Positions 2,291 to 32,379 of a DNA stretch of 64,000 nt are shown piece by piece; within the stretch, counting starts at the first letter, position 1, and the number at the start of each line of letters is the position of its first letter. The stretch is from Heterodontus francisci. Taxonomy: Eukaryota. The notes beneath the pieces were generated by a model, which saw only the letters and a program-made list of their open reading frames with translations, did not search any database and had not been told where the DNA came from. The position numbers were made by a program, and so were the translations under genes. The stretch is taken from positions 27,199,914 through 27,263,913 of the forward strand of contig NC_090383.1 of the NCBI RefSeq assembly GCF_036365525.1, written 5' to 3'.

Positions 2291-5200
2291 GGGGAGGTGG
2301 CGGTGTAGTGGTACTGTCACTAGACTAGTAACCCAGAGAGCCAGGGTATTGCCCTGGGGACAAGAGTTCGAATCCCACCACAGCAGAAGGTGGAATTTGA
2401 ATTCAATTAATAAATCTGGAATTAAAAAGCTAGTCTAATGAAACCATTGTCGATTGTTGTAAAAACCCATCTGGTTCACTAATGTCATTTAGAAGGAAAT
2501 CGACTGGCCTACATGTGACTCCAGACCCACAGCAATGTGGTTGACTCTTACATGCCCTCTGAAATGGCCCAGCAAGCCACTCAGTCGTACCTATAAAAAG
2601 AATGAAACAGGACGGACCACCCGACATCGACCTCGGCACCGGAAACGACAATGGCAAGCCCAGCCCTGTCGACCCTGCAAAATCCTCCTTACTAACATCA
2701 GGGGGCTTGTGCCAAAGTTGGGAGAGCTGTCCCACAGACAAGTCAAGCAACAGCCTGACATAGTCATATGCATGGAATCATACCTTACAGACAATGTCCC
2801 AAACACTGCCATCACAATCCCTCAGTATGTCCTGTCCCACCAGCAGAGGTGGCAGCACAGTCGTATACAGTTGGGAGGGAGTTGCCCTGGGAGTCTTCAT
2901 GGCATCAGGTCAAACATGGGCAAGGAAACCTCCTGCTGATTACCACCTACCCCACTCTGTCAGCTGATGAGTCAGTACTCCTCCATGTTGAACACCACTT
3001 GGAGGAAGCACTGAGGGTGGCAAGGGGGCAGAATGTACTCTGGGTGGGGGACTTCAATGCCCATCACCAAGAGTGGTTCGGTAACACCACTACTGACTCA
3101 GTCAGCCAAGACCTAAAGGACATAGCTGCTAGACTGGGAACACAGCAGGTGGTGAGGGAATCAACAAGAGGGAAAAACATATTTGACCTCATCCTCACCA
3201 ATCTGCCTGCCGCAGATGCATCTGTCCATGACAGTATTGGTAGGAGTAACCACCGCAAAGTCCTTGTGGAGACGAAGTCCTGCTTTCACATTGAGGATAC
3301 CACCCACCACCACCCCCCCCCCACCCCCACCACCACCAAGCTAAATGGGATAGATTTTGAACAAATCTAGCAATGCAAAACTGGGCATCTATGAGGCGCT
3401 GTGGGCCATCAGCAGTAGCAGAATTGTACTCAACCACACTCGGTAACCTCATGGCCTGGCATATCCCCTACTCTACAATTACCATCAAGCCAGGAGACTA
3501 ACCCTGGTTCAATGAAGAGTGCAGGAGGGCATGCCAGGAGCAGCACCAGGCATACCTCAAAATGAGGTGTCAACCTGGTGAAGCTACAACACAGGACTAC
3601 TTGCGTGCTAAACTGCGTAAGCAGCACACAATAGACAGAGCTAAGCGATCCCATAACCAACGGATCAGATCTAAGCTCTGCAGTCCTGCCACATCCAGCC
3701 GTGAATGGTAGTGGACAATTAAACAACTAACTGGAGGAGGTGGCTCCACAAATATCCCCATCCTCAATGATGGGGTGCCCAGCACATCAGTGCGAAAGAT
3801 AAGGCTGAAGCATTTGCAACAATCTTCAGCCAGAAGTGCTGAGTTGCTGATCCATCTCAGCCTCCGCCTGAAGTCCCCAGCATCACAGATGCCAGACTTC
3901 AGCCAATTCAATTCACTCCGCGTGATATCCAGAAACGACTGAAGGCACTGGATACTGAAAAGGCTATGGGCCCTGACAATATTCGGGCAATAGTACTGAA
4001 GACCTGTGCTCCAGAACTTGCTGCACTCCTAGCCAAGCTGTTCCAGTACAACTACAACACTGGCATATAACCGGCAATGTGGAAAATTGCCCAGGTATGT
4101 CCTGTACACAAAAAGCAGAACATGTCCAACCCGGCCAATTACCGCCCCATCAGTCTACTCTCAATCATCAGTAAAGTGATGGAAGGTGTCATCAACAGTG
4201 CTATCAAGTGGCACTTGCTTAGCAATAACCTGCTCAGTGACACTCAGTTTAGGTTCCGCCAGGGCCACTCAGCTCCTGACCTCATTACTGCCTTGGTTCA
4301 AACATGGACAAAAGAGCTGAACACAAGAGATGAGGTGACAGTGACTGCCTGTGACATCAAGGCAGCATTTGAAACAGTATGGTCAAAACTAGCAAAACTG
4401 AAGTCAATGTGAATCGGGGGGAAAACTCTCCGCTGGTTGGAGTCATAGCTCGCGCAAAGGAAGATGGTTGTGGTTGTTGGAGGTCAATCATCTCAGCACC
4501 AGGACATCACTGCAGGAGTTCCTCAGGGTAGTGTCCTAGGCCCAATCATCTTCAGTTGCTTCATCAATGAGCTTCCTTCAATCATAAGGTAAGAAGTGGG
4601 GATGTTCGCTGATGATTGCACAATGTTCAGCACCATTCGCAACTCCTCAGATACTGAAGCAGTCCGTGTAGAAATGCAGCAAGACCTGGACAATATCCAG
4701 ACTTGGGCTGATAAGTAGCAAGTAACATTCGTGCCACATAAGTGCCAGGCAATGACCATCTCCAACAAGAGAGAATCTAACCATCAACCCTCGATATTCA
4801 ATGGCATTACCATCGTTGAATCCCCCACTATCAATATCCTAGGGGCTACCATTGACCAGAAACTGAACTGGAGTAGCCATTTAAATACCGTGGCTACAAG
4901 AGCAGGTCAGAGGCTAGGAATCCTGCAGCGAGTAACTCACCTCCTGACTCCCCAAAGCCTGTCCACCATCTACAAGGCACAAGTCAGGAGTGTGATGGAA
5001 TACTCTCCACTTGCCTGGATGGGTGCAGCTCCAACAACACTCAAGAAGCTCAACATCATCCAGGACAAAGCAGCCCACTTGATTGGCACCCCATCCACAA
5101 ATATTCACTCCCTCCACCACTGACGCACAGTGGCAGCAGTGTGTACCATCTACAAGATGCACTGCAGCAACGCACCAAGGCTCCGTAGACAGCACCTTCC

Positions 5201-5503
5201 AAACCCGCAACCTCTTGCAACTAGAAGGACAAGGGCAGCAAATGCATGGAAACACCAACATCTGCAAGTTCCCCTCCAAGTCACACACCATCCTGACTTG
5301 GAACTATATCGCCATTCCTTCACTGTCGCTGGGTCAAAATCCTGGAACTCCCTTACTAACAGCACTGTGGGTGTACCTACCCCACATGGACTGCAGCGGT
5401 TCAAGAAGGCAGCTCACCACCACCTTCTCAAGGGCAATTAGGGATGGGCAATAAATGCTGGCCTAGCCAGCGACGCCCACATCCCATGAATGAATTTTTA
5501 AAA
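2291..5503 (+). mobile_element. Apparently full-length but decayed CR1-group LINE (APE+RT, no ORF1) with a tRNA-like 5' head
   Basis: A-box 2298-2311 and B-box 2364-2376. ORF from ATG 2535 enters an APE domain (TNIRGL, PDIV..ESYL, GDFNAH, DLILTN). RT motifs YRPISLLS, GVPQGSVLGP, FADD. Tail cccatgaatgaat. Many stops and frameshifts. Confidence 0.88.
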
Positions 5504-5757
5504 TTGCCTCGACCAATTAGAGTCAAGCTGCCTGGTTTAAATTTTAAACAAAGCTTGGAAGTTAACTGTCAGTCACCGTATACTGGTGCATTTGCCATGG
5601 CAATGCCTTTACCAATCAGAGTTCATTTGCCAACCAATCAGCACTCTCTTCTCATGCACTTTGTGTTGTTGTTTTCCCTCACATTGGTTATTCTTGCGAT
5701 TGTCCTGATGATGAAAAGCTTTGACAACATGTCTCTATTTTCAGCAATACTCAAGTT
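5504..5757 (+). mobile_element. Penelope-like element, 3' terminal part (continuation of 1680-2290)
   Basis: Appears to resume the element interrupted at cagggcaa|...|tgcctcgaccaat. Contains a shortened hammerhead-like CTGATGA..GAAA core at about 5705-5717. Confidence 0.6.
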
Positions 5758-7360: not shown

Positions 7361-7441
7361 ATGACTTATCGTGGCTAGCTGCTATTTGAATCATTTAGTA
7401 AGAATTCTAGTCCACCTATCACACCTGAGCAAAATAAACTA

Positions 7442-7714
<273 letters not shown>

Positions 7715-16289: not shown

Positions 16290-18510
16290 GATGATAAGAA
16301 ATTGGAGAAGGAGTAGGCCATTTGGCCCCTCATTCCTGCTGCATCATTCAATAAGAACATGGTTGATCTGACTGTGGCCTTAACTCCATTTTCCTGCCTG
16401 CCCCCAATACCCTTGACTCCCATGCAGATCGAAAATCTGTCTAACTCAGCCTTGAATATATTCAATAATCCAGTTTCCACTGCTTTCTGGAGAAGCGAAT
16501 TCCAAAGGCTAATGACTCTCAAGAGAAGAAATTCCTCCTTATCTCCTTCTTAAAAGGGTGACCCCTTATTTTGAAACTGTGCCCCCTAGTTCTAGATTTC
16601 CCCACAAGGGGAAACATCTTCTCAGCATCTATCCTGTCACGCTCCCGCAGAATCTTGCAAGCTTCAATAAGATCACCTCTCATTCTTCTAAACTCCAGTT
16701 AGTACAGGAACAACCTGCTCAACCTTTCCTCATAAGACAACCCTTTCATCCCAGTAATCAGCCTACTGAACCTTCTCTGAACTGCTTCCAATGCAAGTAT
16801 ATCCCTCCTTAAGGAAGGAGACCAAAACTGTATGCAGTACTCTAGGTGTGGTCTCACCATGCCCTGTACAGTTGTAGCAAGACTTCCCTACTTGTATACT
16901 CCATCCTCCTTGCAATAAATGCCAACATTCCATTTGACTTCTTAGTTACTTGCTGTACCTGCATACTAACTTTTTGTGAATCATATACAAGGACACCCAG
17001 ATCCCTCTGTACCACAGCATTCTACAGTCTCTCTCCAGTTAAATAATATTCTGCTTTTCCATTTTTGCCACCAAAGTGGACAACCTCACATTTTCCCACA
17101 TTGCATTCCATCTGCCAAATTTTTGCCCACTTACTTTACCTATCTATTTATACCTCTTTGCAGACACTTCTTGTCCTCCTCACAACTTGCTTTCCCACCA
17201 ATCTTTGTATTGTCAACAAATTTGGCTACAATACACTTGCTCCCTTTATCCAAGTCATTAATATAGATCCTAAATAGTTGGGGCTCCAGAAATGATCGCT
17301 TTGGCATTCCACTGGTTACAGTTTGCCAACCTGAAAATGTTTCATTTATCCTGTCTCTCTGTTTCCAGTTAGCTAGCCAATCCTCTATCCGTGCTAATAT
17401 ATTATCCCCAACACCATGAGCTCTTAAATTGTGTCGTAACCTTTTATGTGGCACCTTATTGAATGCCTTTTGGAAATCCAAATACACTACATGTACTGGT
17501 TCCCCTTTATCCACTCTGCGTGTTACATCCTCAAAGAACTCTAATAAATGTGTCAAACACGATTTCCCTTTCATAAAACCATGTTGACTCTGCCTGATTG
17601 CATTATGATTTTCTAAATGTCCTGCCACTACTTCCTTAATAATGGATTCTAGCATTTTCCCAATGGCAGATGTTAGGCTAACTGGCCTACAGTTTCCTCC
17701 TTTCTGCCTCCCTCCTTTCTTGAATAGAGGTGTTACATTTGCAGTTTTCCAATCCACTGGGGCCTTTCCAGAAACTAGGGAATTTTGGAAGATTACAACC
17801 AATGCATCCTCTATCTCTGCAGCCACTTCTTTTAAGATCCTAGGATGTAGGCCATCAGGTCTAGGGGACTTTCAATCTTTAGTTCTATAAGTTTTCCTAG
17901 TACTTTTTCGTCAAATGATAGTGATTGTTTTAAGTTCCTCCCTCCCTTTTGCCCCTTGATTTTCTACTATTCTTTGGATTTTTGTGTGTCTTCTTCCATG
18001 AAGATGGATACAAAATACTTGTTCAAAGTCTCTGCCATTTCCTTGTTTCCCACTATTAATTTCCCAGTCTCATCCTCTAAAGGACCAACACTTACTTTAG
18101 CTACTCTCTTCCTTTTCATATATTTGTAGAAGCTTTTACTGTCTGTTTTTAGATTTCTTGCTAGTTTACTGTCATACTTTGATTTCTCTCTCTTTTTTGT
18201 CATCCCCTGTTGGTTTCTAAAATTTTCCCAATCTTCTGGCCTACCACTGATTTTTGCCATATTCTCAATGGAATATATGTCTTTGTTGAAAGTTATGAAA
18301 TATTTCCTTCAATGTCTGCCACTACTTCTCTACCATCTTACCTTTTAACTTATTTTCCCAGTCCACTTTAGCCAACTCTGTCTTCATACCCTTGTAATTG
18401 CCTTTATTTAAGTTTAAGACACTAGTTTCAGACCTAAATTTCTTACCCTGAAACTGAATGTGAAATTCTATCATTGTTCTGATCACTCTTGCCTCGAGGA
18501 TCATTTGGAC
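16290..18510 (-). mobile_element. CR1 LINE ORF2 (RT), long fragment
   Basis: ORF 17140-17826 contains DWKTANVTPLFKKG...RPVSLTS...QHGFMKGKSCLT...YLDFQKAF; CR1 3' tail near 16290-16400. Confidence 0.9.
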
Positions 18511-22562: not shown

Positions 22563-24270
22563 CAAAGACAAGGCTGAAGCATTTGCACCCTTTCATGCAG
22601 AAGTGCCGAGTGGATGATCCATCCTGGCCTCCTCCTGAAGTCCCCAGCATCACAAATGCCAGTCTTCAGCCAATCCGATTCACTACGCATCATATCAAGA
22701 AATGGCTGAAGGCACTGGATACTGCAAAAGCTATGGGCCCTGACAACATTCCGGCAATAGTACTGAAGACTTGTGCTCCAGAACTAGCCATGCCCCTAGC
22801 CAAGCTGTTCCAGTACAGCTACAATACTGACATCTGCCCGGCAATGTGGAAAATTGCCCAAGTATGTCCTGTACACAAAAAGCAGGACAAATTGAACCTG
22901 GCCAATTACCACCCTATCAGTCTACTCTCGATCATCAAAGTGATGGAAGGTGTCGTCGACAGTGCTATCAAGCGACACTTGCTCAGTAATAACTTGCTCA
23001 GTGACGCTCAGTTTGGGTTCTGCCAGGGTCACTCAGCTCCTGACCTCATTACAACATTGGTCCAAACATAGACAAAAGAGCTGAACTTCAGAGGTGAGGT
23101 GAGAGTGACTGCCCTTGACATCATGGTCACATTTGACCGATTATGGCATCAAGGTGCCTTAGCAAAACTGGAGTCAATGGGAATCTGGGGAAAACTCTCC
23201 GCTGGTTGGAGTCATACTTAGCACAAAGGAAGATAGTTGTGGTTGTTGGAGGTCAATCATCTCAGTCCCTGGATATTACAGCAGGAGTTCCTTAGGGTAG
23301 TGTCCTAGGCCCAACCATCTTCAGCTGCTTCATCAATGACCTTCCCTCCTTCATAAGATCAGAAGTGGGGATGTTCGCTGATGATTGCACAATGTTCAGC
23401 ATCATTTGCGACTCCTCAGATAACGAAGCAGCCCGTGTCCAGCTGCAGCAAGACTTGGATAACATCCAGGTTTGGGCTAATAGGTGGCAAGTCACATTCA
23501 CGCCACGTAAGTGCCAGGCAATGACCATCTCCAACAAGAGAGAATCTAACCATTTCCCCTTGATATTCAATGGCATTACCATCGCTGAATTCCCCCGCTA
23601 TCAATATCCTAGGGGCTACCATTGACCAGAAACTGAACTGGAGTAGTCATATAAATACCATGGCTACAAGAGCAGGTCAGAGGCTGGGAATCCTGCGGCA
23701 AGTAACTCACCTCCTGTCGCCCCAATGCCTGTCCACCATCTACAAGGCACAAGTCAGGAGTATGATGGAATACTCTCCACTTTCCTGGATGGGAGTAGCT
23801 CCATCAACACTCAAGAAGCTCGACACCATCCAGGACAAAGCAGCCGGCTTGATTGGCACCCCGTCCACCACCTTCAACATTCACACCCTTCATCACTGGC
23901 GCAGTGGCAGCTGTATCTACCATCTACAAGATGCGCTGCTGCAACTCACCAAGCCTCCTTTGACAGCACCTTCCAAACCCGTGAACTCTACCACCGAGAA
24001 GGAAAAGAGCAGCAGATGCATGGGAACACCACCACCTGCACGTTTCCCTCCGAGCCACACACCATCCTGACTTGGAACTATATCCTTCGCTGTCACTGGG
24101 TCAAAATCCTGGAACTCCCTTCCTAACAGCACTGTGGGTGTACCTATGTCCCAAAGGTTGCAGTGGTTCAAGAAGACCGCTCACCACCACCTTCTCAACA
24201 GAAATTATGGATGGGCAATATCTGTTGGCCTAGCCACTGATGCCCACATCCCATGAATGAATAAAGAAAA
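22563..24270 (+). mobile_element. 5'-truncated copy of the tRNA-headed CR1-group LINE family
   Basis: Colinear with about 3795-5495 (MWKIAQVCPVHKK, GVP.GSVLGP, FADD, same tail). Confidence 0.9.
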
Positions 24271-31859: not shown

Positions 31860-32379
31860 TCAAGAGATCACCCAGTCGGCACTTCTGCCTGAAGATGGTT
31901 GCAAATGTTTCAGCCTTGTCTTTTCCACAGAGGTGCTGGGTTCCGCCATCATTGAGAATGAGGATGTTTGTGGAGCCTCCTTCTCCAGTTTGTTTAATTG
32001 TCCACCACCATTCACAGTTGGATGTGGAAGGACTGTAGAGCTTTGATCTGATCCGTTGGTTGTGGGATCGCTTAGCTCTCTCTGTAGCATGCTGCTTTCA
32101 CTGTTTAATATGCACGTAGTGCTGTGTTGTAGATTCACCAGGTCGGCAGCTCATATTTAGGTATACCTGGCATGCTCTCCACCATTGAAGCAGGATTGGT
32201 CCTCTGGCTTGACAGTAATGGTCGAGTGAGGGATATGTCAGACCGTGAGATTACAGATTGTGGTTGAATACAATTCTGCTGCAGTTTATGGCTTACAGTG
32301 TCTCATTGATGCCCAGTTTTTAGTAGCTGGATTTGTTCTGAATCTATTCCATTTAGCATGGTTGTAGTGCCACACAGCA
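31860..32379 (-). mobile_element. Internal fragment of the tRNA-headed CR1-group LINE family
   Basis: Reverse-complement similarity to about 3335-3855. Confidence 0.75.

Follow-up and report, generated by a model that had tools for sequence, protein, structure and literature searches.

The element at positions 2291-5503 on the forward strand of the window, the 64,000-nucleotide stretch of Heterodontus francisci DNA analyzed in this study, is a broken copy of elasmobranch Zenon, an ORF1-less and poly(A)-tailed LINE of the CR1 group. The tRNA-like head of this copy is the native 5' end of the whole family, sense T-runs are purged from the family beyond codon usage and beyond control LINEs, and its ORF is under purifying selection. 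We consider it likely, at a probability of roughly 60%, that RNA polymerase III (Pol III) transcribes Zenon from a tRNA-Thr-derived head with A and B boxes, and that its APE-RT frame is started internally at a non-AUG codon through a conserved leader core. The combination of a tRNA promoter at +1, a purge of terminators, and the loss of the AUG behind a conserved leader points to a coding element made by Pol III. The element is real, family-wide and a variant of a known LINE; its polymerase and its start site are predictions.

The Zenon family and its tRNA-like head

The boundaries 2291-5503 proposed by the sequence-only reading are confirmed by an uninterrupted form of the host repeat, found 35 times in the genome, in which both flanks are directly joined. 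This form fixes +1 at 2291 and leaves a duplication of at most 2 nt at the insertion point; no target-site duplication above 6 nt was found in 22 copies. The host repeat is presumably a Penelope relic, and a Pfam search of it gave no match. The window copy is full-length and 94.6% identical to the family majority. It had been described as reading directly into APE and RT, which does not hold: ten in-frame stops and four frameshifts against the family protein mark it as a dead element. Its APE domain (approximately 2690-3262, + strand; Pfam PF14529/PF03372) and RT domain (approximately 4113-4850, + strand; PF00078, E 3e-37) are both broken and were mapped to the window from copy L401. Two further members of the family lie in the window, a 5'-truncated copy on the + strand (22564-24262) and an older internal fragment on the - strand (31866-32375), and both lack sense T4 runs, as had been noted for the first and for one homologous site in the second.

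All genome-wide searches covered the 6.0-Gb genome. The query 2291-2760 returned 8,158 candidate loci, and the head continues into the LINE at 30 of 30 loci among the matches listed. A total of 39 copies were fetched, 13 of which were excluded because of a missing 3' end, a large insertion or, in one case, duplication. The remaining 26 near-full copies were aligned with the window copy, and the majority of these 27 sequences is 3,300 nt long with a single frame of 975 codons and an A-tail. Since this sample is biased to head-bearing copies, a second one was drawn with a 27-mer located within the first part of the ORF (6,441 genome matches at ≤1 mismatch, first 30 taken). The whole head was present in 22 of these 30, the copy was cut inside the head in four, and cut below it with unrelated flanks in four; no alternative 5' UTR was found among the 30. 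An older subfamily, selected by its ATA pattern described below (179 pattern matches, 30 aligned), has the same architecture as the younger one. From 150 scored copies we also fetched the 18 with the longest frames; 11 of them reach the 5' end, and none of the 18 combines an intact head with an intact ORF. Segment identities from loci selected by the leader core are biased and were not relied on.

The head (2291-2385, + strand) adopts a tRNA-Thr(AGT) fold with a long extra arm in the majorities of both subfamilies when ARAGORN is run at relaxed threshold. The Rfam tRNA-clan covariance model matches it weakly (17.8 bits, E 0.62), and default ARAGORN and Rfam found no tRNA in the window copy, so that the fold appears only at relaxed thresholds. 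The B box (2364-2376) and the hairpin at the variable-arm position (2341-2357), both recognized previously, are present, and by eye both the older subfamily and Squalus retain the hairpin, with altered pairs. The A box was also rightly recognized, although its proper span is 2301-2311 rather than 2298-2311, and it carries two decay changes in the window copy. An anticodon-arm remnant with the 7-nt loop CTAGTAA occupies 2320-2336. Across 59 head-bearing copies, similarity begins sharply at +1, 10 nt upstream of the A box. A type-2 Pol III start is expected at that distance. No upstream pair of A and B boxes was found at 43 other non-LTR ORFs, several of which have little upstream DNA.

Zenon has been described from sharks, rays, coelacanth and hagfish as always lacking ORF1 and bearing a poly(A) tail (PMC13343379). 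The elasmobranch Zenon of that paper is the same family as ours, at about 3.3 kb with APE, RT and poly(A) and without ORF1, and in the first 400 nt, compared by eye, five named consensus sequences (CarCar, HypSab, RhiTyp, ScyCan and SquAca) are nearly identical to ours: they share its head at their 5' end, and TTTT is absent from that stretch. The 5' ends of the hagfish and coelacanth elements, by eye, are different and contain T4+ runs. The head is therefore no one-off fusion: full-length copies share it across at least two subfamilies and five elasmobranch species. The family majority likewise bears out the absence of ORF1 and the poly(A) tail, with a single ORF carrying APE and RT (Pfam Exo_endo_phos_2 and RVT_1 on L401). 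Given the match to published Zenon, the single ORF is already known. In an RT tree of 37 rows with unlabelled references, the element falls outside a supported (95/92) clade that includes the canonical CR1 of the genome, among ORF1-less relatives at 38-47% identity that bear no clade labels. ORF fragments at 65-80% identity occur in shark gene models and, together with the agreement with published consensus sequences, assign the element to elasmobranchs.

In the main text of PMC13343379 the terms 'tRNA', 'polymerase', 'promoter', 'start codon' and 'translation' do not occur, and the paper gives no account of the head, of the depletion of T-runs, of the lack of an AUG or of the SINE derived from the element. 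The accessible text of a whale shark preprint names CR1-Zenon and nothing more. The literature searched, which lies outside Repbase, Dfam and subscription journals, yielded no account of a Zenon that is driven by Pol III or headed by a tRNA, and the head appears to have gone unremarked in it. Sequence matching both head and body is present in four DNA runs, each from a different organism, and sequence matching the leader and its junction in two RNA-type runs; as all are contigs, none serves as expression evidence, and strand, start and cap are not readable from the RNA-type runs.

Depletion of T-runs and the 3' end

The sequence-only reading had counted one internal TTTT (3355-3358) and a terminal TTTTT in the window copy. 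Both counts stand for this copy, which has 16 sense A4+ runs by comparison. The family majority lacks the internal TTTT; it has no T4 run and six T3 runs, compared with 45 A3, 49 C3 and 41 G3 runs. In the majority ORF, TTT occurs 4 times against 13.1 expected, a value as low being reached in none of 2000 synonymous-codon shuffles, and words with T at four of five positions occur once against 9.1 expected (P 0.001), while the numbers of A, C and G runs agree with expectation. The proposed comparison with codon shuffles thus shows strong depletion of TTT and of 4-of-5-T words, though not of T4 taken alone (0 observed, 2.1 expected; P 0.07-0.09 under codon-preserving controls). Under a first-order Markov null the result is weaker (P 0.04 for T3, 0.27 for T4) because that null absorbs the deficit of TT. 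A silent T precedes a T-starting codon at 3 of 57 sites, as against 109 of 434 elsewhere, and words of the form T2VT3 or T3VT2 are absent from the majority ORF. The older subfamily is likewise T-poor, and 14 of the 18 longest-frame copies contain no T4. Low Phe content (1.8%) was rejected as separate evidence, since two homologues have 1.6-1.7% and the loss of conserved Phe is unexceptional.

The comparison with other LINE families, also suggested beforehand, gave a clear difference. A majority of 12 copies of canonical CR1 from the same genome has 38 TTT against 42.0 expected and 10 T4 against 12.3. As a further control, 80 related metagenome loci yielded 43 ORFs of at least 550 codons, with TTT observed/expected ratios of 0.65-1.18 against 0.30 in the Zenon majority, and with 2-53 T4 runs each against none. 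TTT depletion reached P ≤0.01 in five of these 43, but was much weaker. Of the refuting conditions set beforehand, the two at the level of sequence, a head confined to this copy and T-runs at compositional expectation, did not come true.

The terminal TTTTT was rejected as an encoded terminator of the family. The 3' tail (5430-5503, + strand), common to the LINE and to a 400-bp SINE, consists of a stem-loop (5457-5471) and a short A-tail, which in the window copy has decayed to TTTTTAAAA. Among the 16 longest-frame copies with a 3' end, 14 have a plain A-tail and only one has T4; tails beginning with T4+ number 15 of 59 overall. Since decay of the tail accounts for the terminal T-run, transcription by Pol III would have to terminate in the flanking DNA.

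An open reading frame without AUG and its leader

The first Met of the family ORF is residue 285, past the APE domain; in most of the homologues inspected, a Met stands a short way upstream of the APE motif. The ORF had been thought to open at the ATG at 2535-2537 (+ strand). In the family this ATG is in the +1 frame, which ends after 19 codons, and it comes into frame in the window copy only through a 17-nt deletion between 2593 and 2594. The AUG-less ORF begins instead with an Arg-rich N-terminal leader (2594-2680, + strand), within which a conserved ATG at 2602 again belongs to the +1 frame. The frame of this ATG would have CpG at 7 of 9 silent sites, compared with 17 of 109 for the ORF itself (P 6e-5), and the ATG is ATA in the older subfamily. 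As the ATG-2602 frame fails on both counts, the Arg-rich frame is the coding one. Downstream of a conserved in-frame GCT, length changes preserve the frame in 23 of 26 copies. Between the older and younger headed subfamilies, with 55 CpG-touched codons skipped, dN is 0.019 and dS 0.123, and the resulting dN/dS of 0.157 indicates that headed elements made their own protein. The older subfamily was chosen by its ATA, and the value of 0.157 is a joint figure for the two subfamilies. A coding frame without AUG strengthens the need for cap-independent initiation that had been foreseen from the window, and we put internal non-AUG initiation at about even odds.

Upstream of the frame lies a nearly invariant leader core, which spans about 140 nt in family members and has lost part of this length in the window copy (2463-2584, + strand). 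It contains two hairpins on the + strand, one capped by a GCAA tetraloop (2527-2540) and one at its end (2559-2584). The core differs at 1 of ~145 nt between the two subfamilies and, by eye, at 1-7 positions across the five species, far less than the tRNA head. One two-sided change, in Rhincodon, and some one-sided changes fit the hairpins by eye. The last hairpin presents an anticodon-like 7-nt loop, CUAGCAA, that could form 3-4 bp with a conserved downstream GCUA; no two-sided change in this pairing was seen in the sequences compared, and a true mimic of the PKI type is doubtful. Folding of the core is no better than that of shuffles (z -0.56), no Rfam IRES model matches the leader up to E 10, and no Rfam ribozyme was found at +1, where the head folds as a tRNA and not as an HDV-like ribozyme. 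Leader motifs gave 48 matches in viral contigs, none of them head-like by BLAST, and two in prokaryote genomes. SINE derivatives, which need no translation, retain the core to position 319 or beyond, and its conservation may therefore serve retrotransposition.

The best-surviving rival, which we judge improbable but not negligible, assigns the coding RNA to Pol II, with the core acting as an internal promoter or with read-through from the host. The head would be kept for another purpose such as stability, RNase P trimming or RT binding, and T-runs would be low because of effects at the RNA level. Other Zenon-like elements do have an AUG and many T4 runs, the family tail holds AATAAA, the dinucleotides TA (0.65) and TT (0.71) are both scarce, and Pol II is generally regarded as the polymerase of LINEs (PMC5786205). 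The products of Pol III are also usually short, which counts against our reading (PMC10886601). However, transcription by Pol II does not account for a +1 placed 10 nt ahead of an intact A box, or for a purge limited to T-runs and to this lineage. It would also produce a capped RNA whose ten leader AUGs are all out of frame or in short frames, none opening the long frame.

Only marginally less probable is a rival that accepts Pol III and places the start at a leader AUG, through read-through of the UAG in AUG-GCC-UAG-CAA, re-initiation once this mini-ORF has ended, or a frameshift of -1 after a start at ATG 2602. In its favor, AUG-GCC-UAG-CAA is in frame with the ORF, has good Kozak context and is shared by both subfamilies and all five species, each of which also has the +1 ATG in its main consensus. 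Against it, each of the three consensus sequences from Squalus has an in-frame TAA six codons past the UAG, and that stretch is 1 nt shorter in Rhincodon, both judged by eye on automatic consensus sequences that can err. In two other organisms A makes up 29% of the depth at that site, to which SINE junctions may contribute. The TAA form is sporadic in H. francisci (23 copies versus ~17 with TAG), so it gives no support against the leader-AUG route in this genome; it was also discarded as a subfamily marker there. The frameshift route in particular conflicts with the CpG result and with the ATA of the older subfamily.

A derived SINE, the proposed cycle and known systems

An exact 56-mer from the head occurs 556 times in the genome. 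Among the first 30 of these loci, 22 consist of head plus tail, seven are LINE copies and one is a head without tail match. Eighteen of the 30 are a 400-bp element joining positions 1-319 or 320 to the last 80 nt, and four are other head-plus-tail deletions; all breakpoints lie at position 319 or later. Young SINE and young LINE heads are separated by four diagnostic changes in 319 positions, far fewer than separate old from young LINE heads, and the SINE therefore looks like an offshoot of the LINE lineage. Heads of older type are found on the older SINEs, which suggests repeated derivation. The weakest rival treats the headed full-length elements as SINE-LINE chimeras that lack autonomy and are mobilized in trans by an AUG-bearing Zenon with its own 5' UTR; the greater abundance of the same-head SINE and the AUG-less ORF would fit it, but it is very improbable in view of the single kind of 5' end in the 30 ORF-selected copies, the dN/dS between headed subfamilies, the identical junction in sharks and a ray, and the derived look of the young SINE head.

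Under our preferred reading of Pol III transcription with internal initiation, TFIIIC would bind the A and B boxes of the head, and Pol III would initiate at +1 and read 3.3 kb without meeting T4. The transcript would stop at the first T-run of the flanking DNA, as Alu transcripts do (median 68 nt beyond the tail). The uncapped RNA would bring in ribosomes through the leader core, and decoding would begin at the conserved in-frame GCT or close to it, some 40 codons upstream of the APE motif. ORF2p would then prime at the 3' stem-loop and A-tail, and internally deleted head-plus-tail derivatives would act as ordinary SINEs using the Zenon RT. In its fullest form, the proposal makes Zenon an autonomous LINE with a 3.3-kb Pol III mRNA translated without cap or AUG, an IRES-like core setting the GCU frame in the manner of dicistrovirus IGR IRESs, an arrangement kept since the shark-ray split, and SINEs spawned by internal deletion. 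We regard this fuller version as tentative, and as possible rather than probable.

SINEs are defined as Pol III-made and non-coding, and LINEs as coding and made by Pol II. If the proposal is true, a LINE lineage with a tRNA promoter, a terminator-purged body of 3 kb and no AUG would break the division between SINEs and LINEs. It would offer a natural model for protein expression from Pol III RNA as well as a new vertebrate element for non-AUG initiation. The head-plus-tail derivatives show a direct route from LINE to SINE.

The following comparisons refer to the accessible text of the cited papers. SINEs are stated to be unable to encode protein (PMC5786205). Like SINE2 elements, including SacSINE1 of sharks and HE1, Zenon has a tRNA-derived 5' head with A and B boxes at +1, a LINE-type tail and no terminator of its own (PMC5499810; PMC4824008). 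Unlike them, the 3.3-kb form codes and is under purifying selection, and only the 400-bp derivative is short and non-coding. A Meta-domain identity was discarded, no likeness to the bivalve sequences in the supplement of PMC4824008 being seen by eye. RTE-1_DAn and elements related to it belong to a different clade of LINEs reported to contain a tRNA-like stretch, and are compared here by description only (PMC5786205). Bipartite non-autonomous derivatives of RTE- and Vingi-type LINEs are also internal deletions (PMC5786205), as is Persaeus, which retains the 5' and 3' ends of lepidopteran Zenon (PMC6740152). Persaeus has no Pol III promoter, whereas the shark derivative inherits a putative one from its LINE, which would thus yield a SINE by deletion alone.

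The leader recalls the dicistrovirus IGR (type 6) IRES, a conserved RNA of 150-190 nt directly upstream of an AUG-less frame (PMC12221177; bioRxiv 2024.04.17.590008). GCU is the commonest first codon behind such IRESs (PMC12221177), like the conserved in-frame GCT of Zenon, and the resemblance in starting without AUG is one of sequence. The Zenon leader differs in offering only 3-4 possible pairs, without SLIV/SLV motifs, an Rfam match, PKII/PKIII domains, subtype motifs or fit to known IRES models. Among the LINEs headed by HDV-like ribozymes (R2, RTE and L1Tc), R2, which is co-transcribed by Pol I, shares with Zenon a likely uncapped RNA that needs cap-independent initiation. L1Tc, for which an IRES has been proposed beside its HDV-like ribozyme, resembles Zenon in the same respect; its 5' end arises by ribozyme cleavage, whereas that of Zenon would be a Pol III start (PMC3383444).

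Leader and 3' tail of the Zenon element and its derived SINE

The leader's last hairpin (window 2559-2584) and the 3' tail stem-loop (window 5457-5471) share a 9-mer, TGGCCTAGC, which both contain in the family majority. It is possibly a recognition motif of ORF2p that is present twice, in which case full-length and head-plus-tail copies would be favoured. A 400-bp tRNA-Thr SINE, abundant in the genome containing the window, consists of Zenon positions 1-319 joined to the Zenon tail; examples are found at L071:1429-1825 (locus as oriented in the head-selected set) and at a second locus, L072. Several further head-plus-tail deletion forms of Zenon occur in the same genome. No description of the 400-bp SINE was found in the literature searched.

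The first A's of the tail have turned into a T-run in about a quarter of the family's 3' tails (15/59), more commonly among SINE and older copies. This T-run is a recurrent shift of the T/A boundary, and the tail of the window copy displays the same shift at 5495-5503.

Surroundings of the insertion

At 3299-3340, a low-complexity CAC/C-rich stretch takes the place of about 40 nt in the window copy. The insertion splits a host repeat, presumably Penelope-like, into two parts (1514-2290 and 5504-5757), which gave no Pfam match. The end of this repeat was found in inverted arrangement at another locus, L418, and more pieces lie in the window at about 29.4, 37.8, 39.2, 50.8 and 56.6 kb. The minus strand carries a C2H2 zinc-finger exon (7439-7714; Pfam zf-C2H2), which we take to be Ovo-like, and a canonical CR1-like LINE fragment (16756-17859) separate from Zenon, which at the protein level is 21-31% identical to the majority sequence of Zenon.

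Possible T-poverty in other Zenon-like sequences

Two Zenon-like metagenome ORFs, L133:374-2239 and L138:536-3475, display a moderate deficit of TTTT runs (2 against 7.4 and 5 against 14.3, respectively) despite the presence of AUG, and neither is accompanied by A/B boxes. In the Zenon-like proteins P0003 and P0005 from other organisms, Phe accounts for 1.6-1.7%, which is as low as in the shark element, and a second T-poor lineage may stand behind them.
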